A DNA stretch of 64,000 nucleotides, taken from assembly GCF_963921235.1 (NCBI RefSeq), contig NC_086097.1, positions 152,274,001 through 152,338,000 on the forward strand, given 5' to 3'. A program made the position numbers and the translations under genes. The notes below the pieces were generated by a model that saw only the letters and a program-made list of their open reading frames with translations, was not told the origin of the DNA and made no database searches. This document shows, piece after piece, positions 377 to 64,000 of the stretch. The DNA is from Mobula hypostoma (lineage: Eukaryota). The stretch's first letter is position 1, and every line of letters starts with the position of its first letter.

Positions 377-3300
377 CACCTGAACTCAAAAGGTACTAAT
401 ATCCTGGCGGGATTGTTTAATATAGCTGTTAGGGAGGGTTTAAACTAAGTTGGCAGGGGGAAGGAAACCAGGGTGTTAGGGTCGAGGAAGAGGAAAATAG
501 AAATAAGTCAAAAATACTATGCAGCAAAGATGGCAAGAAGGACAGGCCGGTGAATATACAGGATAATTTGCTGCAAAATAGGAATATAGCAAAATCGGCA
601 ACAGATACTGATCTAAATGTACTGTACTTAAATGCACGCAGCATTAGAAATAAAGTGGATGACCTTGCTGCACAGCTACAGGTTAAAAGATATGACATTG
701 TGGCCATCAGTGAGTCATGGCTAAATGATGGATGTGATTGGGAGCTGAATATCCAAGGATACACAGTGTAGAGGAAAGATAGGGAGGTAGGTAAAGGGGG
801 TGGCGTGGCCCTGATGGTAAGTAACAATATCAAATCAATAGAAAGAAGGGACATAGGATCAGAAGAGGTAGAATCCTTATGGGTCGAATTAAGAAATGGC
901 AAGAGTGAAAAGATACTAATAGCAGTTATATACAGGCCTCCAAACCACAGCCAGGATGTGGACTACAACTTGCAGCTGGACATAGAAAAAGCGTGTCAGA
1001 AGGAAAATGTCAAGATAATTATGGGGGATTTTAATATGCAAGTGGATTGGGAAAGTCAGGAAGGTTATAGATCTCAGGAGAGGGAGTTTGTAGAATGCCT
1101 ACAGGATGGCTTTTTAGAGCAGCTTGTCCAGAAGCCCACCAGTGGACCGGCTGTTTTGGATTGGGTGTTGTGTAACGAACCTGAAGCGATTAGGGAGCTG
1201 GAGGTAAAGGAACCCCTTGGAAGTAGTGATCATAATATGATTGAGTTCAGTTTCAAATTTGAAAAGGAGAAGCCGGTATCAGGTGTATCGATATTTCAGT
1301 GGAACAGGGGAAATTAGTGGTACGAGAGGGGAACTGGCCCAAATCGATTGGAAAAGTAAGCTAAATGGAGGGACGGCAGAGCAGAATTGGATGAAATTCC
1401 TACAAGAAATAAGGAAAATGCAGGAAAAATATATTCCAAGAAAAAAGAAAATCATGAATGGAAAAATGGCACAAATGTGGCTAACGAGAGAGGTTATGGC
1501 AAAAAGAAAAGGAACGGCGTACAAGGAAGCAAAAATTAGTGGGAAAAATGAGGACTGGAAGACTTTTAAAAACTTACAGAAGGAAACTAAGAAAGTCATT
1601 AGGAAAGAAAAGATGAATTATGAAAGGAAGTTGGTGATTAACATAAAAAAGGATATTAAGAGCTTTTTTTAAATATATGAAGAGTAAAAGAGTAACAAGG
1701 GTAGATATGGGACCGATTTAAAATGATGCTGGAGAAATTATAATGGATAACAAAGAGATGGCGGAGGAACTGAATGAGTATTTTGCATCAGTCTTCACAG
1801 TGGAAGACATGAGCAATATACCTGATAGCCAGAGGTATCAGGGAGTAGAATTAGGTGCAGTCAAGATTACTAGAGAGAAAGTGCTTGGGAAACTAAGTGG
1901 ACAAAGAATAGATAAGTCTCCCGGTCCGGATGAGGTGCACCCAAGGGTTCTGAAGGAGGTGGCTTTGGAGATTGTGGAAGCATCGGAAATGATCTTCCAG
2001 GAATCAATAGACTCTGGCATGGTTCCGGAGGACTGGAAGGTGGCAAATGTAGTGCCGCTATTTAAGAAAGGAAGGAGGCAGCAAAAAGAAAATTACGGAC
2101 CTATTAGTCTGACATCGGTAGTTGGAAAGATATTGGAGACAATCCTCAAGGACGAGGTTATGAAATACCTCGAGGTGCATGACAAGATAGGCTGAAGCCA
2201 GCATGGTTTCATGAAGGGAAGATCCTGCCTCACCAACCTATTGGAATTTTTTGAGGTAATCTCGAATAAGATTGACAAGGGAGAGGCTGTGGATGTTGTG
2301 TATTTGGATTTTCAAAAGGTCTACGATAAGGTGCCGCATATGATGCTGCTGAATAAGATGAGAGCCCACGGAATTATAGGAAAGATATTGAAATGGGTGG
2401 AGCATTGGCTGATAGGCAGAAAGCAAAGGGTAGGAATAAAGTGATCCTATTCTGATTGGTTGCCAGTTACTAGTGGTGTTCCGCAGGGGTTGGTGTTGGG
2501 GCCGCTTCTTTTTACGATGTATATCGATGAGTTGGATTATGGATTAAATGGTTTTGTGGCTAAGTTTGCAGATAATGCCAAGATAGATGGAGGAGCAGGA
2601 AATGTTGAAGAAACAGAAAGGTTGCAGAGAGACTTAGTCAGTTTAGGAGAATGGGCAAAGAAATGGCAAATGAGATACAACATTGACAAATGTATGGTTG
2701 TACATTTTGGAAGAAGAAATAATTGGGCAGATTATTATTTAGATGGGGAGAAAATTCAAAAATCGGAAGTGCAAAGGGACTTGGGGGTCCTCGTGCAGGA
2801 TACCCTAAAGGTTAACCACCAAGTTGGATCAGCGGTAAGGAAAGCGAATGCTATGTTGGCACTCACTTCAAGAGGAATAGTGTATAAGAGTAAGGAGGTG
2901 TTGATGAGGCTCTATGGGGCATTAGTGAGACCTCATTTGAAATACTGTGTGCAGTTTTGGGCCCCCTATCTTAGAAAGGATGTACTGATGTTGGAGAGAG
3001 TTCAGAGAAGATTTACGAGGATGATTCCTGGAATGCAGGGGCTAACATATGAGGAGCGTTTGTCAGCTCTTGGACTGTATTCATTAGAGTATAGAAGAAT
3101 GAGAGGGGATCTCATAGAAACATTTCAAATGTTGAAAGGGTTGGACAGAGTAGATGTGGAAAGGTTGTTTACCTTGGTGGGTGAGTCCAGGACAAGAGGC
3201 CATAGTCTTAGAATTAGAGAGTACCCAGTTAAGACAGAGATGAGGAGAAATTTTTTTAGCCAGAGGGTCATGGATTTGTGGAATTCGTTGCCACATATAG

Positions 3301-16872: not shown

Positions 16873-19800
16873 TAACAATAGGTACTCCTGTTTGAGTACT
16901 GTTGTGGGGGACAGCTTACCTGGGGGAAGCGACAGTGGCCCTGCCTCCGGCACAGAGTCTGGCCCTGTAGCTCAGAAGGGTAGGGCAAGGAAGAGGAGGG
17001 CAGCTGTGATAGGGGACTCGATAGTAAGGCGGTCAGATAGGCGATTCTGTGGACGCAGTCCAGAGACCCGGATGGTAGTTTGCCTCCCTGGTGCCAGGGT
17101 CCGGGATATTTCTGATCATGTTCAAGATATCCTGAAGTGGGAGTGTGAGGAGCCAGAGGTCGTGGTACATATAGGTACCAATGACATAGGTAGGAAAAGG
17201 GAAGAGGTCCTGAAAGGAGAATATAGGGAGCTAGGAAGGGAGTTGAGAAAAAGGACCGCAAAGGTAGTAATCTCGGGATTACTGCCTGTGCCACGCGACA
17301 GTGAGAGTAGGAATGCGATGAGGTGGAGGATAAATGCGTGGCTGAGGGATTGGAGCAGGAGGCAGGGATTCAAGTTTTTGGATCATTGGGACCTCTTTTG
17401 GCGCAGGCGTGACCTGTACAAAAAGGACGGGTTACACTTGAATCCTAGGGGGACCAATATCCTGGCAGGGAGATTAGCGAGGGCTACTGAGGTGACTTTA
17501 AACTAGAATGGTTGGGGGTGGGAATCAAATTAAAGAGGCTAGGCGAGAGGAGGTTAGTTCACAACAGGGGGATGGGAACCAGTGCAGAGAGACAGAGGGG
17601 TGTAAAGTGAGGGTAGAAGCAAAAAGTAGTAAGGAGAAAAGTAAAAGTGGCAGGCCAACAAATCCAGGGCAAGCATCGAAAAGGGCCACTTTTCAACATA
17701 ATTGTATAAGGGCTAAGAGAGTTATAAAAGAGCGCCTGAAGGCTTTGTGTGTCAATGCAAGGAGCATTCGTAATAAGGTGGATGAATTGCAAGTGCAGAT
17801 TGTTATTAATGATTATGATATAGTTGGGGTCACAGAGACATGGCTCCAGGGTGACCAAGGATGGGAGCTCAACGTTCAGGGATATTCAATATTCAGGAGG
17901 GATAGACATGAAAGAAAAGGAGGTGGGGTGGCGTTGCTGGTTAAAGATGAGATTAACGCAATAGAAAGGAAGGACATAAGCCGGGAAGATGTGGAATCGA
18001 TATGGGTAGAGCTGCGTAACACTAAGGGGCAGAAAACGCTGGTGGGAGTTGTGTACAGGCCACCTAACAGTAGTAGTGAGGTCGGAGATGGTATTAAACA
18101 GGAAATTAGAAATGTGTGCAATAAAGGAACAGCAGTTATAATGGGTGACTTCAATCTACATGTAGATTGGGTGAACCAAATTGGTAAAGGTGCTGAGGAA
18201 GAGGATTTCTTGGAATGTATGCGGGATGGTTTTTTGAACCAACATGTCGAGGAACCAACGAGAGAGCAGTCTATTCTAGACTGGGTTTTGAGCAATGAGG
18301 AAGGGTTAATTAGCAATCTTGTCGTGAGAGGCCCCTTGGGTAAGAGTGACTATAATATGGTGGAATTCTTCATTAAGATGGAGAGTGACATAGTTAATTC
18401 AGAAACAAAGGTTCTGAACTTAAAGAGGGGTAACTTTGAAGGTATGAGACATGAATTAGCTAAGATAGACTGGCAAATGACACTTAAAGGATTGACGGTG
18501 GATATGCAATGGCAAGCATTTAAGGATTGCATGGATGAACTACAACAATTGTTCATCCCAGTTTGGCAAAAGAATAAATTAAGGAAGGTAGTGCACCCGT
18601 GGCTGACAAGAGAAATTAGGGATAGTATCAATTCCAAAGAAGAAGCATACAAATTAGCCAGAAAAAGTGGCTCACCTGAGGACTGGGAGAAATTCAGAGT
18701 TCAGCAGAGGAGGGCTAAGGGCTTAATTAGGAAGGGGAAAAAAGATTATGAGAGAAAACTGGCAGGGAACATAAAAACTGACTGTAAAAGCTTTTATAGA
18801 TATGTAAAAAGGAAAAGACTGGTAAAGACAAATGTAGGTCCCCTACAGGCAGAAACAGGTGAATTGATTATGGGGAGCAAGGACATGGCAGACCAATTGA
18901 ATAATTACTTTGGTTCTGTCTTCACTAAGGAGGACATAAATAATCTTCCAGAAATAGTAGGGGACAGAGGGTCCAGTGAGATGGAGGAACTGAGCGAAAT
19001 ACATGTTAGGGAAGTGGTGTTAGGTAAATTGAAGGGATTAAAGGCAGATAAATCCCCAGGGCCAGATGGTCTGCATCCCAGAGTGCTTAAGGAAGTAGCC
19101 CAAGAAATAGTGGATGCATTAGAGATAATTTTTCAAAACTCGTTAGATTCTGGACTAGTTCCTGAGGATTGGAGGGTGGCTAATGTAACCCCACTTTTTA
19201 AAAAAGGAGGGAGAGAGAAACCGGGGAATTATAGACCAGTTAGCCTAACGTCGGTGGTGGGGAAACTGCTGTAGTCCGTTATCAAAGATGTAATAACAGC
19301 ACATTTGGAAAGCGGTGAAATCATCGGACAAAGTCAGCATGGATTTGTGAAAGGAAAATCATGTCTGACGAATCTCATAGAATTTTTTGAGTATGTAATT
19401 AGTAGAGTGGATAGGGGAGAACCAGTGTATGTGGTATATTTGGATTTTCAAAAGGCTTTTGACAAGGTCCCACACAGGAGATTAGTGTGCAAACTTAAAG
19501 CACATGGTATTGGGGGTAAGGTATTGATGTGGATAGAGAATTGGTTAGCAGACAGGAAGCAAAGAGTAGGAATAAACGGGACCTTTTCAGAATGGCAGGC
19601 AGTGACTAGTGGGGTACCGCAAGGCTCAGTGCTGGGACCCCAGTTGTTTCCAATATATATTAATGACTTGGATGAGGGAATTAAATGCAGCATCTCCAAG
19701 TTTGCGGATGACACGAAGCTGGGCGGCAGTGTTAGCTGTGAGGAGGATGCTAAGAGGATGCAGGGTGACTTGGATAGGTTGGGTGAGTGGGCAAATTCAT

Positions 19801-23800: not shown

Positions 23801-24052
23801 TCGTTCCGGGACCCATCCCCCTCGCAAATTAGTTTAAACCCTCCCGAACCATGCTAGCAAACCTACCTGCAAGGATATTGCTCCCCCTCGAGTTCAGGTG
23901 CAACCCATCCAATCTGTACAGGTCCAACCTTCCCCAGAAGAGATCCCAATGATCCAAAAATCTAAAACCCTGCCCCCTGCACCAACTCCTCAGCCACGCA
24001 TTCAACTGCCATCTCCTCCAATTCTTACCATCACTATCAAGTAGCACTGGCT
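20875..24052 (-). mobile_element. CR1 LINE (third subfamily), 5'-truncated in ORF1, frameshifted ORF2
   Basis: ORF1 end LDGLHLNSRGSNILAGRFASMVREGLN* (stop 23829-23831). APE YFNARS and SDH. RT DKSPGPDG, YMDFSK, LVRPHSEYC. Confidence 0.95.
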
Positions 24053-33628: not shown

Positions 33629-34171
33629 AACTGAAGGAAGAGTGAGTAAGGGATTTGAAAGTTGGAGGGGGAGGGGGAGATCCAAAATGATAGGAGAAGA
33701 CAGGAGGGGGAGGGATGGAGCCAAGAGCTGGACAGGTGATTGGCAAAAGGGATACGAGAGGATCATGGGACAGGAGGTCCGGGAAGAAAGACAAGGGGGG
33801 GGTGAACCAGAGGATGGGCAAGGGGTATATTCAGAGGGACAGAGGGAGAAAAAGGAGAGTGAGAGAAAGAATGTGTGTATAAAAATAAGTAACAGATGGG
33901 GTACAAGGGGGAGGTGGGGCCTAGCGGAAGTTAGAGAAGTCGATGTTCATGCCATCAGGTTGGAGGCTACCCAGACGGAATATAAGGTGTTGTACCTCCA
34001 ACCTGAGTGTGGCTTCATCTTCACAGTAGAGGAGGCCGTGGATAGACATATCAGAATGGGAATGGGATGTGGAACTAAAATGTGTGGCCACTGGGAGATC
34101 CTGCTTTCTCTGGCGGACAGAGCGTAGATGTTCAGCAAAGCAGTCTCCCAGTCTGCGTCGGGTCTCGCCAA

Positions 34172-35650
34172 TACCTCGACACGGTTTTATTCCCCCTTGT
34201 TCAATCCCTTCCTACCTATGTTCGTGACACTTCTCACGCTCTTAAACTTTTCGAAGATTTTAAGTTCCCTGTCCCCCACCGCTTTATTTTCACCATGGAT
34301 GTCCAGTCCCTATATACTTCCATCCCCCATCAGGAAGGTCTCAAAGCTCTACGCTTCTTTTTGGATTCCAGACCTAATCAGTTCCCCTCTACCACCACTC
34401 TGCTCCGTCTAGCGGGATTAGTCCTTACTCTTAATAATTTCTCCTTTGGCTCCTCCCATTTCCTCCAAACTAAAGGTGTAGCTATGGGCACCCATATGGA
34501 TCCTAGCTATGCCTGCCTTTTCGTTGGCTTTCTGGAACAATCTATGTTCCGTGCCTATTCTGGTATCTGTCCCCCACTTTTCCTTCGCTATATCGACGAC
34601 TGCATTGGCGCTGCTTCCTGCATGCATGCAGAGCTCGTTCACTTTATTAACTTTGCCTCCAACTTTCACCCTGCCCTCAAGTTTACCTGGTCCATTTCCG
34701 ACACCTCCCTCCCCTTTCTAGATCTTTCTGTCTCTGTCTCTGGAGACAGCTTATTCACTGATGTCTACTATAAGCCTACTGACTCTCACAGCTATCTGGA
34801 CTATTCCTCTTCTCACCCTGTCTCTTGCAAAAACGCCATCCACTTCTCGCAATTCCTCCGTCTCCGCCGCATCTGCTCTGAGGATGAGGCTTTTCATTCT
34901 AGGACGAGGGAGATGTCCTTTTTTAAAGAAAGGGGCTTCCCTTCCTCCACTATAAACTCTGCTCTCAAATGCATCTCCCCCATTTCACGCACATCTACTC
35001 TCACTCCATCCTCCCTCCACCCCACTAGGAATAGGGTTCCCCTGGTCCACACCTACCACCCCACCAGCCTCAGGGTCCAACATATTATTCTCCGTAACTT
35101 CCGCCACCTCCAACGGGATCCCACCACTAAGCACATCTTTCCCTCCCCCCCCTCTGCTTTCCGCAGGGATCGCTCCCTATGAGACTCCCTTGTCCATTCG
35201 TCCCCCCCATCCCTCCCCACTGATCTCCCTCCTGGCACTTATCCGTGTAAGCGGAACAAGTGCTACACATGCCCTTACACTTCCTCCCTTACCACCATTC
35301 AGGGCCCCAAACAGTCCTTCCAGGTGAGGCGACACTTCACCTGTGAGTTGGCTGGGGTGATATACTGCGTCCGGTGCTCCCGATGTGGCCTTTTATATAT
35401 TGGCGAGACCCGACACAGACTGGGAGACCGCTTTGCTGAACACCTATGCTCTGTCCGCCAGAGAAAGCAGGATCTCCCAGTGGCCACACATTTTAATTCC
35501 ACATCCCATTCCCATTCTGACATGTCTATCCACGGCCTCCTCTACTGTAAAGATGAAGCCACACTCAGGCTGGAGGAACAACACCTTATATTCTGTCTGG
35601 GTAGCCTCCAACCTGATGGCATGAACATCAACTTCTCTAACTTCCACTAA
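34172..35650 (+). pseudogene. 5'-truncated Penelope RT + Cys-rich linker + GIY-YIG endonuclease, one in-frame TGA (35180-35182)
   Basis: MDVQSLYTSIP, GVAMG, RYIDD, FLDL, YYKPT. Linker CKRNKCYTC. VIYCVRCSRCGLLYIGET..RFAEH..HF..EE..GMN. ORFs 34082-35182 and 35324-35650 share a frame. Confidence 0.93.
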
Positions 35651-47297: not shown

Positions 47298-50200
47298 TCA
47301 TATTCTATAAAAAACCCCTGTACCCCTTAAAAACGCTAAAAATACCCAGACTTGTTCTCTCTCAACCATGACCAGCAACCCTTTTAATGTGAATTCCTGC
47401 ATCCCCAACTCCCTTATTTCTCATCATCTCTCTGTATCCCATACTTCCTGCAACACAAAACTACATGTTCTACTGACTCCTCTTCCTGACATTCCTCACA
47501 CAATCCTGTCTGGTGTTTCCCTATCATTTTCAATGTTTTGTTTAATGCACAATGCCCCAGCCTTAACCTAGTCCACACAATTTCCTCTCTTCTGTTTCCA
47601 TTACCTACCCTAGTAATTGCAACACTCTTTTGTATTTGATATAAATGCCTCCCTTTCCCCTCCCTGTCCCATTTTTCTTGCCACATTCACTTGACTTTTT
47701 CCCCAGATTACACACTTAACCTCTGTTTTAGTGATACTAATGTGCATTTCCACATTTTCTTTCTTTAACACCCTCTTTGCCAACTCATCCACCCTCTCAT
47801 TTCCCTTCACCCCTACATGTGCTGGAACCCATAGAAATTTTACCTGACCTCCCTGATTTGCAATTCTTGTAACTAACTGAAGGACTTCATAAAGTACATC
47901 TTGCCAACTGTTTGTGTGAAAAGACCTTAAACTTGCTAGAACTGAGGATGAATCTGAACATATCAATGCTTTGACTTGTCTGGCTTTCTGCACCCATTGC
48001 AACGCAACCAACACCGCCAGCATCTCCACTGTAAACACCCCTAACTTATTAGATGTTCTTCTGCTGATTCCAATTTCTTTTGCTGGTATTACCACCCCAA
48101 ACCCTGTCACTCCTGTTTCAGGTTCCTTCGCACCATCCGTATAAATGTGAGTATAATCACTATACTTTCCCATCACATGACAGTTAAATGCATTTACCAA
48201 ATCTGTTTTATATCTTTCTTTCCTTTTTACCTCTAACAAATGCCAGTCTATGTCAGGCCATACAAGCTTCCATGGAGCTACAACCAGATAAACTACTGAA
48301 GGACTAATCCTCAGATCAAATACTCCACATTCTTTCGCAATATCATTCCCTACCCAAACTAAAGGTATCCCTCTGAAACCTCTCATTTTCCCAGCACTCC
48401 TGCAACACTCCTTTAGTAGGGTGAGAATCATTGTGCCCCTGCAAGTTAGCCCAGTAGTTTGCCATCAGTTGCATCCTTCTTAGTTCCAAAGGCATTATTC
48501 CCATTTCTACCTGTAGTGCTGACACTGGTGACGTTTTAAAAGCCCCACTGCACACTCTCAAGGCCTGAGCCTGAATCACTTCCAGTTTCCTTATAAGAGA
48601 CCTAGCTGCTGATCCACATACTATATTTCCATAATCCAATACAGATCTCACTAAAGCCACATAAGTTCTCTTCAAAGCTGAACAACTTGCTCCCCATTCC
48701 CTACCAGTCAAACATCTCATCACATTTATTACTTTTTTACATTTCTCCTCAACTTTCCTGATATGGTCTGCCCATGTTAATTGTGAATCAAATACAATTC
48801 CCAGAAATTTAAATGATGCAACTCTTTCTAATTCAACCCCATACATTCTTAACTTCTTCCCTACCTCAACCCTTTTCCTGGTAAAAAAAAATACAGTTTG
48901 AGTTTTATCTACTGAAAATCTACATCCCCAATCATAGCCCCACTCCACCACTTCATCAATTGCTTCTTGTAGTTTCCTGATTATATGGTCCATGTTCCTG
49001 CCTCTTTTCCACAAGGCCCCATCATCCGCAAACAGTGACCTACCTATATCCACTGGTACCTTTGTGAAGACATCATTGATCATAATGATGAAAAGTAACG
49101 GGCTAATCACACTACCTTGAGGTGTGCCATTTTCCACTATGTACTGTTTTGATAATTCTGATCCAATCCGAACTTGAATTTTTCTACCAAACAAAAATCT
49201 TTAATCCAATTAAAAACTCTCCCACCAACCCCCATCTTGTGCAGTTTAATTAATAATCCTTCCTTCCACATCAGATCATAGGCTTTTTCAATGTCAAAGA
49301 ACACTGCCACTACTGACTCTCTATTTGCCTGGGCCTTCCTTATTTCAGTCTCTAACATAATCACTGAGTCCATGGAATTCCTTCCCTTTCTAAAACCACT
49401 CTGATAACTTGCCAGCATTCCCCTTTTGTCAAGCTCATATGATAACCTTTCTGTTATCATCCTTTCCATTATCTTACATATACTTGATGTTAATGCAATT
49501 GGTCTGTAGATAGTGGGTTTTGACAGATCCTTGCCAGGCTTCCTTATTGGAATTACTACTGCTTCTTTCCATGCACTTGGTAATCTTCCCTCCTCCCACA
49601 CTCTTATAAAAATGCAGCAACTTCAAGAGTGCTCCTTCTCCTAGATTTTTTAGCATCACAGAGCATATCAGATCTTTCCCTGGGGAGGTTGGTCTCGATC
49701 TCTTTATTGCTCTCACCATTTCTGCTAATGTAAATGGATCAATTATATCATCTGTTCCTTCCCTCCTGCTTAACACACCTGGGTGTTGGCTCATTATTCT
49801 TTCCCTTCTTCAGACAAATTTTCTGAACTGTGCATCAGTACAAATGAATTGGCCATGACCTCAGCCTTATCCCTACTGGAAACTGCAGTTTCCTCCTCAG
49901 ATATCATTACTGGATATTCCCATTCCCTTCTATCTCCTCCCATCCTCTTAATCATTCCCCATATCTCTCCTACAGGTGTTGTTCTTCCTACCTTGTCACA
50001 AAAACTCCTCCAACTTGCCCTTTTAGCTTGACATATAGTTCTTCTCACCACTGCCTGTGCTTTCTTATATTGAACCAAATGCTGCATATTATGGGTTCTT
50101 TTAACTAGCCTGAATGCTCTATTTCTGTTTTTTACAGCCTGACAACATTCCTCTGTCCACCATGGTACCAGTTTTCTATTCATCCTATTTTTACTCCTAG

Positions 50201-51034
50201 GTATAGATCCTTCTGCTGCCATGATAATTGCTGAAGTCACCTGACTGTTTAATTCATCTACATTTCCAGAAATATCAATCTTTGTCAACCCTTCTTCACT
50301 CAACTTCTGGAACTTACCCCAATCAGCTTTTTCAAACACCCACTTTGGGGTTCCACCACCTGGTCTTACTTCAACTCTTTCACCCACTGAACACAAAACT
50401 GGGTAGTGATCACTGCCTACTGTTGAAGCAGTCCAAACTCCCCAGTTACTAATGCCAGCCAAGGTATTAGACACTAACGTAATATCTAACACTGACACAG
50501 TTCCTGTTGTTATATCTATCTTTGTGCCGCTACCATCATTCATACACACCAAATCCCTTTCTTCCATCAAACCTTCAATTACCTTTCCATTTGGATCTGT
50601 AATCTGATCCCCCCCATATTGTGCTATGAACATTGAAATCTGCACACCACACTACTTTATGTCTGTTTTGTCCTTGTATCTTTAATAGGCTGTCCAAATC
50701 CAACCTTTTACATGGATTGTAGTAGTTAATTATAACCACTCCCTCCCCTCGCTCCCACATTTCCACCACTATGTATTCCTGATCATCTCCTTTTTCCAGT
50801 ACCCTATATGGTATACCTTGCTTGATTTACATAGCACACCCACCTCCTCCCCCCTAGATTTCTATCTTTCCTTATCATTGTATACCCATATACCACAAAG
50901 TCTAAAGTTGGTTTCAACTAAGTTTCCTGAATACACACTACATCCGGTTTTACAACCATTTCTTTAATAAAGTGCTTGAATTCCTGGCAATTGGCCAGTA
51001 AGCTCCTTGCATTCCATTGTAAAAGAATCACCAT
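47298..51034 (-). pseudogene. Nimb/I-group ORF2 (APE, RT, RNase H, zinc knuckle) broken by frameshifts and a stop
   Basis: MVILLQWNARS (ATG 51034), GSDHYP, FFDIEKAYD, GTPQGSVISP, LFADD, IYTDG..E..SDS..WVPAHVGVKGNERVD, RLRLGH..CEEC..H..C. Confidence 0.93.
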
Positions 51035-51042
51035 AATTAGTA

Positions 51043-52368
51043 TTAACCAACACATGACACTTCCTGGCTTGACTGATTACTGAGGTTCTCCCTCACTTCC
51101 TCCCATGTCAGTCCTACTAACCCTAAATGGTTTACTGCTGCTTTTACCACCAGCTGAATTTTGTCACTTTTTGACTTTACCTCAGCCGTACTATTAATCA
51201 CTCCTGCAATGAATGTTACTAGAGCCTTTTTGTCTACATAAATCCTGTCATTTGTTCTTTGTTGCATCTCTCGTATCCCTATTGCTTCCTGTTCATTAGG
51301 AGCATTATTCTGTTCTCTTGACATTCTTACAGCTTCTGCATAAGTGATCTTTCTTTTCACTCTTATTTCTTGAATTTTAGTCTCCCGTCTCACAACCTCA
51401 CACCCACTATATGCAACATTATGAGATCCTCCACAATTGCAGCATTTTGGTTGAACTACTGTTCCGCACTTTCCATATTCATGATCACCCCCACATCTAG
51501 CACATCTCCTCTGCCTTTTACAGTTTTTAGCCACGTGTCCAAACCTTTGACAATTATAGCACCTCAATGGCTTTGACACATACACCCTTACTGGGTAACT
51601 CATGAAACCCAGGAACACCTTCCTTGGCACTCTTTCTTCTTCAAATTCAATCAATACAGATTCACTTTCCTTTTTCACTCCCTCCTTTGTTGTTTTCAGT
51701 CTTTGAACATTCATTACTTTCCCTCCTTTGATATTCCTCTTTATCTCCTCCAGATTTATACTCATTGGTATCCCCGCGATCACTCCTTTACAACCACTGT
51801 TTTGTGCTCCCACCCTCCCAGTGTATTCCACCTTGCATTTTCCTATCTCTTTTAGCTTGAGTGCTTTCTCAAGTTGTTCCTCATACGCACATCTTACCAA
51901 TAAGTTGCCATCATTAAGGACTTTTGCAAATACTATTTCCCCTATCTTATTTGTCAGAGCTGTTGTTAGCACAAACAGGTTAATTTTCTTCATATGTCCC
52001 TGAGTCTTCTCATTAAACCTAATTATGACAACACCTCCTCTCTGAACTTGTTCATCTTCCTCACTTTCAGAGCTTTCTCCACTATCATTTCTTATTCTTT
52101 TATTCCCTTTGTCTTGGTTTTTATTCATCCGACCCCTCACTACCTCCTCATTCCCTTTATTTCTCCCTTCACAATAATCCACCTCTCCCCAGCTGCCTAC
52201 CTCTGGTCCCAAGTCTCTATCCCTCTCCACTTTCTTTCCCTCAACCCCACCTCTTATCTTGTCCACCATTACCGGACCCACACAACCCCTTCCCAGCAAT
52301 TTCCATTCCTTCCCCACTCTCTTTCCCTCAACAGGTTCCAAAACACACTCACGCATCAAGCAAAACAC
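51043..52368 (-). CDS. Nimb/I-group LINE ORF1p, nucleic-acid-binding protein with three CCHC knuckles (open 441-codon frame; true start uncertain)
   Basis: PLRCYNCQRFGHVAKNC, CARCGGDHEYGKC, CCNCGGSHNVAYSGC and ITYAEA. Confidence 0.85.
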   Translation of the reverse strand: MFCLMRECVLEPVEGKRVGKEWKLLGRGCVGPVMVDKIRGGVEGKKVERDRDLGPEVGSWGEVDYCEGRNKGNEEVVRGRMNKNQDKGNKRIRNDSGESSESEEDEQVQRGGVVIIRFNEKTQGHMKKINLFVLTTALTNKIGEIVFAKVLNDGNLLVRCAYEEQLEKALKLKEIGKCKVEYTGRVGAQNSGCKGVIAGIPMSINLEEIKRNIKGGKVMNVQRLKTTKEGVKKESESVLIEFEEERVPRKVFLGFMSYPVRVYVSKPLRCYNCQRFGHVAKNCKRQRRCARCGGDHEYGKCGTVVQPKCCNCGGSHNVAYSGCEVVRRETKIQEIRVKRKITYAEAVRMSREQNNAPNEQEAIGIREMQQRTNDRIYVDKKALVTFIAGVINSTAEVKSKSDKIQLVVKAAVNHLGLVGLTWEEVRENLSNQSSQEVSCVG

Positions 52369-53144
52369 AGCCAGCTTCCAGTCAAGCCAACTCAGCCGCT
52401 CCCTTCTCAGACGCCGGATTGCCAGGCCACTCCTGAACAGAGCACAACTCCCAACCAGCCTGGCAGAGAATGCTCATCAAGGCAGGGTTTAAATGGACAG
52501 GGTAATGAGTGAAAATTAGACACAGGTGGGTGCAAATGAGGAGACAAGCAGGTAATTGGAAGAAGCCCAAAAAAGGAAAGGGGCTGGGTCAGAACCCACA
52601 TGGCCAGCTGAAAGAAAACAGAAATTAAAGGCTGGTGTGATCCAGAGCTACCAGCAGAGGCCCTTCAATTCAGTGTTCAGGCCGGATCCTTAAGACTCTC
52701 CACACAGCTTTAGACCACCTGGACAATACAAACACCTACGTCAGGATGCTGTTCATTGACTATAGCTCAGCATTTAGTACCATCATTCCCACAATCCTGA
52801 TTGAGAAATTGCAGAACCTGGGCCTCTGTACCTCCCTCTGCAATTGGCTCCTCGACTTCCTAACCAGAAGATCACAATCTGTGCGGATTGGTGATAATAT
52901 TTCCTCCTTGCTGACGATCAACACTGGTGTACCTCAGGGGTGTGTGCTTAGACCATTGCTCTACTCTCTCTATACCCACGAATGTGTGCCTAGGAAAAGC
53001 ACAAGTATCATCTGTAAATTTGCTGATGATACAACCATTGTTGGTAGAATCTCAGATGGAGATGAAAGGGCATACAGGAGCGAGATATGCCAACTAGTGA
53101 AGTGGTATCGCAGCAACAACCTTGTACTCAATGTCAGTAAGATG

Positions 53145-60298: not shown

Positions 60299-61234
60299 AT
60301 GGAGGCAGCAGTTAGGGCAGTTGAGTGCTCCATTTGCAGGAGGTGGGAAGTCAGGGTGAGCACAATCACCCCTGATAACTACACCTGCGATAGGTGCATC
60401 CAGCTGCAGCTCCTGACAAACCGAGTGAGGGAGCTGGAGCTGGATTAACTTCGGATCATTCGGGAGGCAGAGGCAGAAATAGAGAGGAGTTACAGGGAGA
60501 TAGTCACCCCTAAGAGAAAGGAGACAGGTAGCTGGGTGACTGTCAGGAGAGGGAAGGGGAATAGACAGAATGAGCAGAGCACCCCTGTGGTCATTCCCAC
60601 CAATAATAAGTACATCGTTTTGGATACTGTTGATGGGGACGACCTACCAGGGACAAGTTGCAGTGGTTGCGTCTATGGCACCGAGATGGGACCCTCAACT
60701 CAGAAGAGAAGGAGGGAAAAGAGGAGGGCAGTATTGACAGGGGATTCGATAGTTAGGGGGACGGATAGGAGGTTCTGTGGAAGAGATCGAGAATCCCGGA
60801 TGGTCTGTTGCCTCCCTGGTGCCAGGGTCCGCGATATCTCAGATCGAGTTCTCAGTATTCTCAAGAGGGAGGGTGAGCAGCCGGATGTTGTGGTCCGTGT
60901 AGGGACCAATGACATGGGTAGGAAGAGTGAGGAGGTCCTGAAAGGTGAGTTTAGGGAGTTAGGTGCCAAGTTAAAGGACAGGACCTCCAGGATAGCAATC
61001 TCAGGATTGCTACCAGTGCCACGTGCAGGCGGGTGTAGAAATAGTAAGATAGTGCAGATTAACACGTGGCTGAAGACATGGTGCAGGAGGGAGGGCTTCA
61101 GATTTATAGACAATTGGGCAGTTTTCCAGGGGAGGTGGGACCTGTTCCGGTGGGACGGTCTACATCTGAACTGGAAGGGGACAAATATTCTTGCAGGTAG
61201 GTTTGCTATGGAGGCTCTGGTGGATTTAAACTAG
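60299..61234 (+). pseudogene. CR1 ORF1: CxxC..CxxC zinc finger, leucine zipper and SGNH esterase; one in-frame TAA (60446-60448)
   Basis: MEAAVRAVECSICRRWE..YTCDRCIQLQLLTNRVRELELD*LRII, then GDS, PGARV, GTND, DGLH. Confidence 0.9.
61225..61231 (+). other. Candidate -1 frameshift heptamer U_UUA_AAC at the CR1 ORF1/ORF2 junction
   Basis: GAT TTA AAC TAG. The -1 frame FKLDTREEGNQ...LKCIYFNARS is open with no ATG. Confidence 0.6.
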
Positions 61235-64000
61235 ATACGAGGGAGGAGGGGAACCAGAGTGTAGGAACAGAGATAGGGAAGAAGGAAGAAAAAGAAAATA
61301 GTAAAGTTGTTTGCACCGTTAGTGATAAACCGAGAGTAAGAGGTGGAAAATTTCTTAAATGCATTTATTTTAATGCTAGGAGCATTATAAGGAAGGTGGA
61401 TGAGCTTAAAGCATGGATTGTTACCTGAAAGTATGATGTGTAGCTATTAGTGAAACCTGGTTACAGGAGGGGTGTGATTGGCAACTAAATATTCCTGGAT
61501 TTAATTGCTTCAGTTGTGATAGAATCAGAGGGACAAGAGGGGGAGGTGTTGCATTGCTTGTCAGAGAAAATATTACAGCGGTGTTTTAGCAGGATAGATT
61601 AGAGGGCTCGTCTAGGGAGGCTATTTGGGTGGAATTGAGGAATGGGAAAGGTGTAGTAACTCTTATGGGGGTGTATTATAGACCACCTAATGGGGAGCGA
61701 GAATTGGAGGAGCAAATTTGTAAGGCGATAGCAGATATTTGTAGTAAGCACAAGGTTGTGATTGTGGGACATTTTAATTTTCCACACATAGACTGGGAAG
61801 CCCATACTGTAAAAGGGCTGGAAGGTTTGGAGTTTGTAAAATGTGTGCAGGATAGTTTTTTTGCAGCAATACATAGAGGTACTAACTAGAGAAGGGGCAG
61901 TGTTGGATCTCCTGTTATGGAATGAGATAGGTCAGGTGACAAAGGTTTCTGTTGGGGAGCACTTCAGGTCCAGTGATCACAACGCTATTAATTTCAATAT
62001 AATTATGGAGAAGGATAGGTCTGGATCCAGGGTTGATATTTTTTGTTGGAAAAAGGCTAACTTTGAGGAGATTAAAAAGGATTTAGAAGGAGTGGATTGG
62101 GACAATTTGTTTTATGGGAAGAATGTAAAAGAGAAATGGAGGTAACTTAAAGGTGAAATTTTGAGAGTACAGAATCTTTATGTTCCTGTTAGGTTGAAAG
62201 GAAAGGTTGAAAGTTTGAGAGAGCCATGGTTTTCGAGGGATATTGGAAATCTGGTTTGGAAAAAGAGAGATATCTACAAAAATATACACAGCATGGTGTA
62301 AATGAGGTGCTCGAGGAATATAAAGAATGTAAAAAGAATCTTAAGAAAGAAATTAGAAAAGCTAAAAGAAGATACGAGGTTACTTTGGCAAGTAAGGTGA
62401 AAATAAATCCCAAGGGTTTCTACTGTCATATTTATAGCAAAAGGATCGTGAGGGATAAAATTGGTCCCTTAGAGAATCAGAGTGGACAGCTATGTGTGGA
62501 GACAAAAGGGATGGGGGGAGATTCTAGACAATTTGTTTTCTTTGGTATTCACTAAGGAGAAGGATATTGAATTGTGGAAGACAAGGGAAGCAGGTAGGGA
62601 AGTTATGGAAACTAAGATGATTAAAGAAGAGGAAGTACTGGTGCTTTTAAGGAATATAAAAGTGGATAAGTCTCCGGGTCCTGACAGGATATTCCCTAGG
62701 GCCTTGAGGGAAGTTAGTGTGGAAATAACAGGGGCTCTGACAGAAATTTTTCAAATGTCATTAGAAACGGGAATGATGCAGGAGGATTGGCGTATTGCTT
62801 ATGTTTTTTCATTGTTTAAAAAGGGGTCTAAGAGTAAACCTAGCAATTATTGGCCTGTGAGTTTGACATCAGTGGTGGGTAAATTGATGGAAAGTATTCT
62901 TAGAGATGGTATATATAATTATCTGGATAGACAGGGTCTGACTAGGAACAGTCAACATGGATTTGTGTGGGGAAGGTCATGTTCAACAAATCTTATTGAA
63001 TTTTTGAAGAGGTTACTAGGAATGTTGACAAGGGTAAAACAGTGGATGTTGTCTATATGGACTTCAGTAAGGCCTTTGACAAGATCCGACACGGAAGGTT
63101 GGTTAGGAAAGTTCAGTTGTTAGGTATTAATATTGAAGTAGTAAAATGGATTCAACAGTGGCTGGATGGGCGATGCCAGAGCGTAGTCGTGGATAACTAT
63201 TTGTCAGATTGGAGGCCGGTGACGAGTGGTGTGCCTCAGGGATCTGTACTGGGTCCAATGTTATTTGTCATATACATTAATGACCTGGATGATGGTGTGG
63301 TAAATTGGATGAGTATGTATGCAGATGATACTAAGATAAATGGAGTTGTGGATAATGAAGTAGGTTTTCAAATCTTGCAGAGAGATTTAGGCCAGTTAGA
63401 AGAGTGGGCTGAAAGATTGCAGATAGAGTTTAATGCTGATAAATATGAGGTGGTACATTTTGGTAGGACTAATCAAAATAGGACATACATGGTAAATGGT
63501 AGGGCATTGAAGAATGCAGTGGAACAGAGGGATCTAGAAATAATGGTGCATAGTTCCCTGAAGGTGGAATCTCATGTGGATAGGGTGGTTAAGAAAGCTT
63601 TTGGTATGCTGGCCCCTATAAATCAGAGCATTGAGTATAGGAGTTGGGATGTAATGTCGAAATTGTACAAGGTATTGGTGAGATCAAATTTGGAGTATTG
63701 TGTACAGTTTTGGTCACTGAATTATAGGAAATATGTCAACAATATAGAGAGAGTACAGAGAAGATTTACTAGAATGTTACTTGTGTTTCATCACCTAAGT
63801 TACAGAGAGAGGTTGAACAAGTTGGGTCTTTATTCTTTGGAACGTAGAAGGTGAAGGGTGGACTTGATTGAGGTATTTAAAATTATGAGGGGGATAGATA
63901 GAGTTGACGTGGATAGGCTTTTTCCATTGAGGGTGGGGGATATTCAAACAAGAGGACATGAGTTGAGAGTTAAAGGGCAAAAGTTTGGGGGTAAGATGAA

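Follow-up and report, generated by a model that had tools for sequence, protein, structure and literature searches.

L1, the studied vertebrate LINE, initiates translation of its ORF2 in an unusual way. The translation mode of LINE ORF2 is described as an open question in a passage of one review (PMC3894237), and PMC13343379 describes CR1-group elements as dominant among the retrotransposons of most vertebrates. Among APE-type non-LTR elements, -1 frameshifting has already been stated, in one source passage, for TRE5-A and TRE3-A of Dictyostelium. In two-ORF Penelope-like elements, an excerpt of PMC8557442 has ORF1 separable by a frameshift with a pseudoknot. The heptamer U_UUA_AAC is among the most shift-prone on mammalian ribosomes, as given in a section of PMC5009743. 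The -2/-1 frameshift in PRRSV nsp2 proceeds with no stimulatory structure, through a short motif of low complexity that follows at a 10-nt spacer and is active only at 9-11 nt (passage of PMC4937337).

A full-text literature search, with CR1 papers of the 1990s-2000s outside its reach, returned no report of CR1 frameshifting and no paper that combined CR1, slippery and retrotransposon. The word 'frameshift' is absent from the main text of PMC13343379, and CR1 is not mentioned in the first 300,000 characters of PMC5009743. Here, we describe CR1-type elements of a ray, Mobula hypostoma, in which ORF1 ends on this heptamer and ORF2 lies one base back.

Results

We analysed a 64,000-nt stretch of the M. 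hypostoma genome (the window). TTTAAAC has 19 matches on the two strands of the window, and a stop codon follows directly in only four of them; all four close an esterase-type ORF1. They constitute the four CR1-type ORF1/ORF2 junctions of the window, at 439, 17497, 23838 (minus strand) and 61225 (Table 1), and at 439 only the last codons of ORF1 are left. These results agree with a sequence-only reading of the window, which had claimed that an in-phase heptamer and a stop end ORF1 at all four sites and that, in the focal copy, the -1 frame runs open from the heptamer to the Asn of APE motif I with no in-frame ATG; the position, phase and adjacent stop of the focal heptamer were also as it had described. 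Its claim that ORF2 lies in the -1 frame stood for the 439, 23838 and 61225 copies but not for the 17497 copy, where ORF2 is in +1. That copy has a run of five G, against six in most sister copies, and the missing G produces TAGAATG with an in-frame Met; in its lineage, ORF2 is in -1 in 20 of 26 copies. The 23838 copy carries an in-frame ATG three codons ahead of the motif I Asn, a private change found in 3/27 copies.

Table 1. Positions of the CR1-type junction features in the window
Feature	Position	Strand	Remarks
ORF1, focal CR1 copy	60299..61234	+	CxxC pairs near the N terminus; SGNH esterase at the C terminus; last residues Leu-Asn
Lipase_GDSL_2 match in focal ORF1	about 60740-61180	+	Pfam, E 4.9e-12
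Slippery-type heptamer T_TTA_AAC, X_XXY_YYZ phase	61225..61231	+	Commonest form in 11/11 lineages
ORF1 stop adjoining the heptamer on its 3' side	61232..61234	+	TAG here; TAG in 5 lineages, TAA in 6, TGA in 0
G-rich box, candidate stimulator	61242..61251	+	Starts 10 nt past the heptamer; reads Gly-x-Gly in -1
Linker, focal copy	61232..61371	+	Open in the -1 frame only; in-frame ATG absent
ORF2 remnant, APE motif I Asn through RT	61372..64000	+	Stops and frameshifts from 61426; runs off the window
Heptamer + TAA, second lineage	439..448	+	ORF2 in -1
Heptamer + TAG, third lineage	17497..17506	+	ORF2 of this copy in +1; lineage majority in -1
Heptamer + TAA, fourth lineage	23829..23838	-	ORF2 in -1

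The focal copy is dead: a premature stop at 60446 interrupts its ORF1 and another at 61426 its ORF2. Its G-rich box has one G>A change. Both of the longer ORF1 remnants scanned in the window matched the SGNH esterase family, and the best PDB match of ORF1 was 4C1B, 'ORF1-encoded protein' (E 1.5e-45). In the intact genomic copies L262 and L271, ORF2 matched the Pfam families Exo_endo_phos and RVT_1, and ORF1 of intact copies was 311-320 codons long. We provisionally call these elements CR1 from a by-eye match of their junction to published CR1-named consensus sequences.

Loss of one G, with ORF2 in +1 behind TAGAATG, was seen at 17507-17520 (+) of the window and also in L010, L019 and L020; in these copies the Met is in frame, one base past the stop. 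The G loss in these four fetched copies, a type that the query favoured, was probably caused by homopolymer slips that recurred. Elsewhere in the window, on the minus strand, an RT followed by a GIY-YIG-like ORF (34079-35650) resembles a Penelope-like element by eye, and a broken LINE with a zinc-knuckle ORF1 and APE, RT and RNase H-like pieces (47610-52473) looks I/Nimb-like by eye.

Copies were then sampled from the same genome (3.48 Gb) with DNA and protein queries. The 295 loci obtained gave 289 anchored ORF1 ends, 250 of them unique; most DNA queries ended before the heptamer, and one DNA and two whole-protein queries included it. A register filter, which required the stop at the expected place or the heptamer within two mismatches, dropped 12 copies and kept 238, comprising 11 lineages of at least six copies and six old singletons. 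TTTAAAC was present in 209 of the 238 in-register copies and was the commonest form in every lineage. Medoid copies of the lineages were 49-85% alike over the 71 nt before the heptamer (ten-lineage set); the lineages are related and hence are not independent trials. An AAT variant that two copies had suggested for one lineage was ruled out, AAC being present in 17/21 copies.

ORF2 was in the -1 phase in 163 copies, in 0 in 28 and in +1 in 28, and 19 copies were unphased. The -1 phase thus accounted for 163/219 phased copies and was the majority in 11/11 lineages; a phase varying at random, which the sequence-only reading had named as contrary evidence, was not seen. Between the heptamer and the motif I Asn there are 50-111 codons, depending on the lineage, and the Asn is always in the -1 frame; the linker has thus repeatedly changed in length by multiples of three nucleotides. 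In the linker, the -1 frame contained 0-0.6 stops per copy (2.0 in the oldest lineage), compared with 2.7-11 in the other frames. In the large lineages, most copies have a stop in the -1 frame 1-5 codons upstream of the heptamer. In the intact copy L262, it is open for 1,015 codons from the heptamer, with the motif I Asn at codon 87.

As a synonymous-site control, we used the esterase domain in a gap-free alignment of the 11 lineages, with 3-17 copies each. The terminal Leu was TTA in 11/11 lineages and the Asn was AAC in 11/11, bearing out what had been claimed from the four copies of the window. Among the other invariant degenerate columns, only 6/46 used a single codon (the printed rows -167 and -166, wrap-around duplicates, are left out of this count), and none of the 10 Leu or 2 Asn columns did so. 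The codon ahead of the terminal Leu ended in T in all 11 lineages while encoding five amino acids. None of the other variable columns, 69 in all with this one, had a third base fixed as T; six had one fixed as G. Synonymous variation of the heptamer was absent at lineage level. This codon freeze is the strongest evidence of selection on the RNA sequence itself.

The search for ORF2 start codons revealed no ATG between the stop and APE motif I, at lineage level, in 7 of the 11 lineages. The other four have ATGs at 65 and 49, at 34 and 31, at 92 and at 8 codons before the Asn. A conserved upstream AUG, the finding that the sequence-only reading had said would speak against frameshifting, was therefore not present, but these four lineages do have one at differing places, and in one of them it is a stop-overlapping TAATG in the -1 frame (16/19 copies). 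The same lineage retains the heptamer in 16/19 copies. TAATG is also present in three shark consensus sequences in the accessible part of the PMC13343379 supplement. Given the TAATG of the ray lineage, reinitiation has to be considered further, either as a rival to frameshifting or as an additional route. L234 and L282-L300 form a single lineage that carries both the slippery heptamer and the stop-overlapping TAATG, and it offers a natural test case for frameshifting and reinitiation side by side.

L262 has its first Met at codon 216, inside the Pfam endonuclease match (100-286) and 129 codons past the motif I Asn; L271 has its first Met at codon 39. Some ORF2 proteins in the databases begin with a Met whose place varies from entry to entry, and others are gene models in which ORF1 and ORF2 are joined. 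Three database proteins (P0003, P0183 and P0071) continue from ORF1 in frame into the linker beginning with FKL, and in P0003 and P0183 the in-frame run extends on to APE motif I. These are probably single-copy indels or gene models, but the phase they display, in another ray species, is the same. The FKL peptide noted in the sequence-only reading is correct as a conceptual -1 translation, but a real -1 slip would give Leu-Asn-Leu. Comparison of the junction with contigs of four sequencing runs gave, among those listed, single-contig joints only, from which strand and starts are not readable.

The G-rich tract downstream of the heptamer, also noted in the sequence-only reading, was conserved in position across 11/11 lineages. 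Counting from the heptamer start, G occupied positions 19-22 and 25-26 in all 11 lineages and position 18 in 10/11, and codon 7 of the -1 frame was GGG in all 11. The 10-nt spacing is kept in several, though not all, of the matching crocodilian, ray and shark consensus sequences in the accessible published set. The box codes for Gly-x-Gly on a purine-rich strand, so that protein constraint is possible; we consider the tract a candidate stimulator.

Folding of the downstream RNA, which the sequence-only reading had proposed, did not yield a stable or shared 3' structure. Folds of 70 nt had z values of -2.2 to +1.4 and weak energies; among 120-nt folds 3' of the heptamer, one reached z -3.0 and two -2.6, and these were not common to the lineages. 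A hairpin or pseudoknot 5-9 nt downstream was likewise not found in these weak, non-shared folds, which were computed with ViennaRNA, a program that does not model pseudoknots; the region is purine-rich and has no nearby C-rich partner. For long-range partners of the G box, the top duplexes differed among nine elements and none was common; C-rich ORF1 stretches ~430 and ~650 nt upstream recurred in these duplexes and are coding sequence. A consensus hairpin formed by upstream ORF1 bases, the G box and the heptamer had weak covariation, with 22 to 204 of 500 shuffles reaching the observed value.

Beyond this genome, 134/182 ORF1 homologues ended in Leu-Asn. Counting only those whose end has the natural spacing from the DGxH motif, the figure was 133 of 139, with 12 different residues preceding. 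The Leu-Asn homologues came from cartilaginous fish (rays, sharks), bony fish, frogs, turtles, squamates (lizards, snake), alligator and birds, as protein evidence that does not show codons. At the DNA level, evidence came from motif searches in published consensus sequences, whose labels we take to stand for halosaur, alligator, bowfin, bullfrog, elephant shark, crocodile, rays, coelacanth and sharks. In the PMC13343379 supplement, which apparently gives the first 400 letters of each consensus and includes low-quality sequences with deletions, the heptamer followed by TAG or TAA had 20 matches, 17 of which lay at the junction by eye (AldAff, AllMis, AmiCal, AquCat, CalMil, CroPor, HypSab, LatCha, PriPec, ScyCan and SquAca). 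By comparison, 12 variant spellings of the heptamer, a partial list of the variants, gave 0/19 matches at the junction in the same accessible sequences. In the available part of the Suh 2014 supplement, matches fell in CR1 3' ends only. SquAca_CR1-18 and SquAca_CR1-3 (PMC13343379, same excerpt) have a look-alike of the heptamer plus stop, with a G-rich stretch, in the 5' region upstream of ORF1.

A metagenome scan returned 43 distant relatives and no vertebrate CR1; in scans of viruses and prokaryote genomes the yield was 2, 0 and 0. The esterase ORF1s of the distant metagenome elements end otherwise than in the Leu-Asn heptamer form. In the metagenome contigs L151, L153, L159 and L191, only one stop separates ORF1 from an APE ORF that is in frame with it, and the 0-frame is open for 89-398 codons; either readthrough or a Met shortly ahead of motif I could operate there.

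Discussion

The heptamer signal itself is real and deeply conserved. All lineages share it and place ORF2 one base back, usually without a start codon of its own, so that the enzyme is likely made by a -1 slip. We consider, with a probability of roughly 80%, that ORF2 of these CR1 elements is expressed as an ORF1-ORF2 fusion through programmed -1 slippage on U_UUA_AAC. The ORF2 phase, the frozen heptamer and the lack of a conserved AUG support this proposal of the sequence-only reading, the slip itself being inferred. Under the proposed mechanism, most ribosomes would release ORF1p on reaching the ORF1 stop. A minority would slip by -1, UUA re-pairing to UUU and AAC to AAA, and read CUA next. 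ORF1, APE and RT would then form one fused product of about 1,300 residues (311-320 from ORF1 plus about 1,000), with Leu-Asn-Leu at the junction. In the most speculative step, ribosomes might be made to pause by the neighbouring stop codon, by a G-box-binding protein or by both, rather than by a pseudoknot. A broader proposal, which we hold only tentatively and think doubtful, is that esterase-type CR1 has kept one unchanged, retrovirus-style and structure-free -1 frameshift since the jawed-vertebrate ancestor, driven by the adjacent stop and a protein on the G box 10 nt downstream.

An unlikely alternative is termination-reinitiation, in which the ribosome would stop, move one base back and begin a separate ORF2p at the stop-overlapping codon, AUG or not. 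It predicts the same -1 phase and open linker, it is favoured by the failure to find a frameshift structure 3' of the heptamer, and it has precedents in SART1 (UAAUG) and in an AUG-independent mode of L1 (passages of PMC3894237, PMC10275272 and PMC5009743). The TAATG found in one ray lineage and in the shark consensus sequences (PMC13343379, in part) is what it would use; however, the stop-overlapping codon is GAT, GAA, AGT, ATT or AAT in 10/11 lineages, the TAATG lineage still has its heptamer, and reinitiation leaves the synonymous freeze of the upstream T-TTA-AAC unexplained.

The freeze also bears on a reading to which we attach still lower probability, namely that protein constraint preserves Leu-Asn while ORF2 begins inside the linker, at an AUG or near-cognate codon that differs between lineages. 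The RNA might then be spliced or shorter, with a promoter-like role for TTTAAA and the G box as DNA. Met codons before motif I in 4/11 lineages and the scattered starts of database proteins are in line with internal starts, as is a similar TTTAAACTAR-plus-G motif in the 5' region of two consensus sequences from the accessible published set. Yet protein constraint fixes neither the codons nor the preceding T, and the esterase ORF1s of distant metagenome elements have other endings. Internal starts are further opposed by the seven lineages without ATG, by the late first Met of L262 and by a frame held back to the heptamer over many linker lengths. That the lineages have simply not diverged at the heptamer bases, by shared ancestry or chance, deserves almost no weight: single-codon columns and G-fixed third bases do occur elsewhere in the alignment, but the residues next to Leu-Asn vary freely, and the accessible published consensus sequences contain the motif in groups as far apart as sharks and crocodilians, a conservation across vertebrates that largely excludes this explanation.

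If the frameshift reading is correct, the real ORF2 product would be a fusion that retains APE motif I, which would be lost in most lineages if translation began at the first Met, and -1 frameshifting would set the ORF1p:ORF2p ratio. The RT would be tethered to an esterase that is lipid-binding according to a passage of PMC3905857, and a structure-free frameshift signal would possibly be added to those known. Should the structure-free model hold, the esterase and coiled-coil carried by the RT fusion could bring it into ORF1p assemblies, as Gag-Pol enters Gag.

Retroviral gag-pol and coronavirus ORF1a/1b junctions resemble CR1 in heptamer, phase and a polymerase downstream in -1 (section of PMC5009743). 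In both, the upstream, structural-type ORF is made in excess, as proposed for CR1 ORF1. Some retroviral shift sites (RSV, BLV) adjoin the 0-frame stop directly. CR1 differs from these viruses in being a non-LTR element and in that no pseudoknot or hairpin was found 3' of its heptamer; no protease was seen in CR1, so a fusion would probably stay intact. TRE5-A and TRE3-A belong to another host kingdom and have another ORF1, and the source passage on them gives neither a heptamer nor a test. Some Penelope-like elements share the SGNH esterase with CR1 ORF1 (excerpt of PMC3905857), but they have a GIY-YIG nuclease, a different RT and a drawn pseudoknot, of which none was found in CR1. SART1 and L1, like CR1, are bicistronic LINE RNAs with low ORF2 output, and the UAAUG of SART1 leads to the same -1 phase; they make a separate ORF2p by reinitiation, whereas the overlapping AUG is missing in 10/11 CR1 lineages. 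The PRRSV signal shares with CR1 a fixed spacer, the G box likewise starting 10 nt past the heptamer. The PRRSV motif is C-rich and bound by nsp1beta/PCBP (passage of PMC4937337), whereas the CR1 box is G-rich and also codes for Gly-x-Gly; by analogy, a protein-bound motif at this spacing suggests a possible model for the G box.
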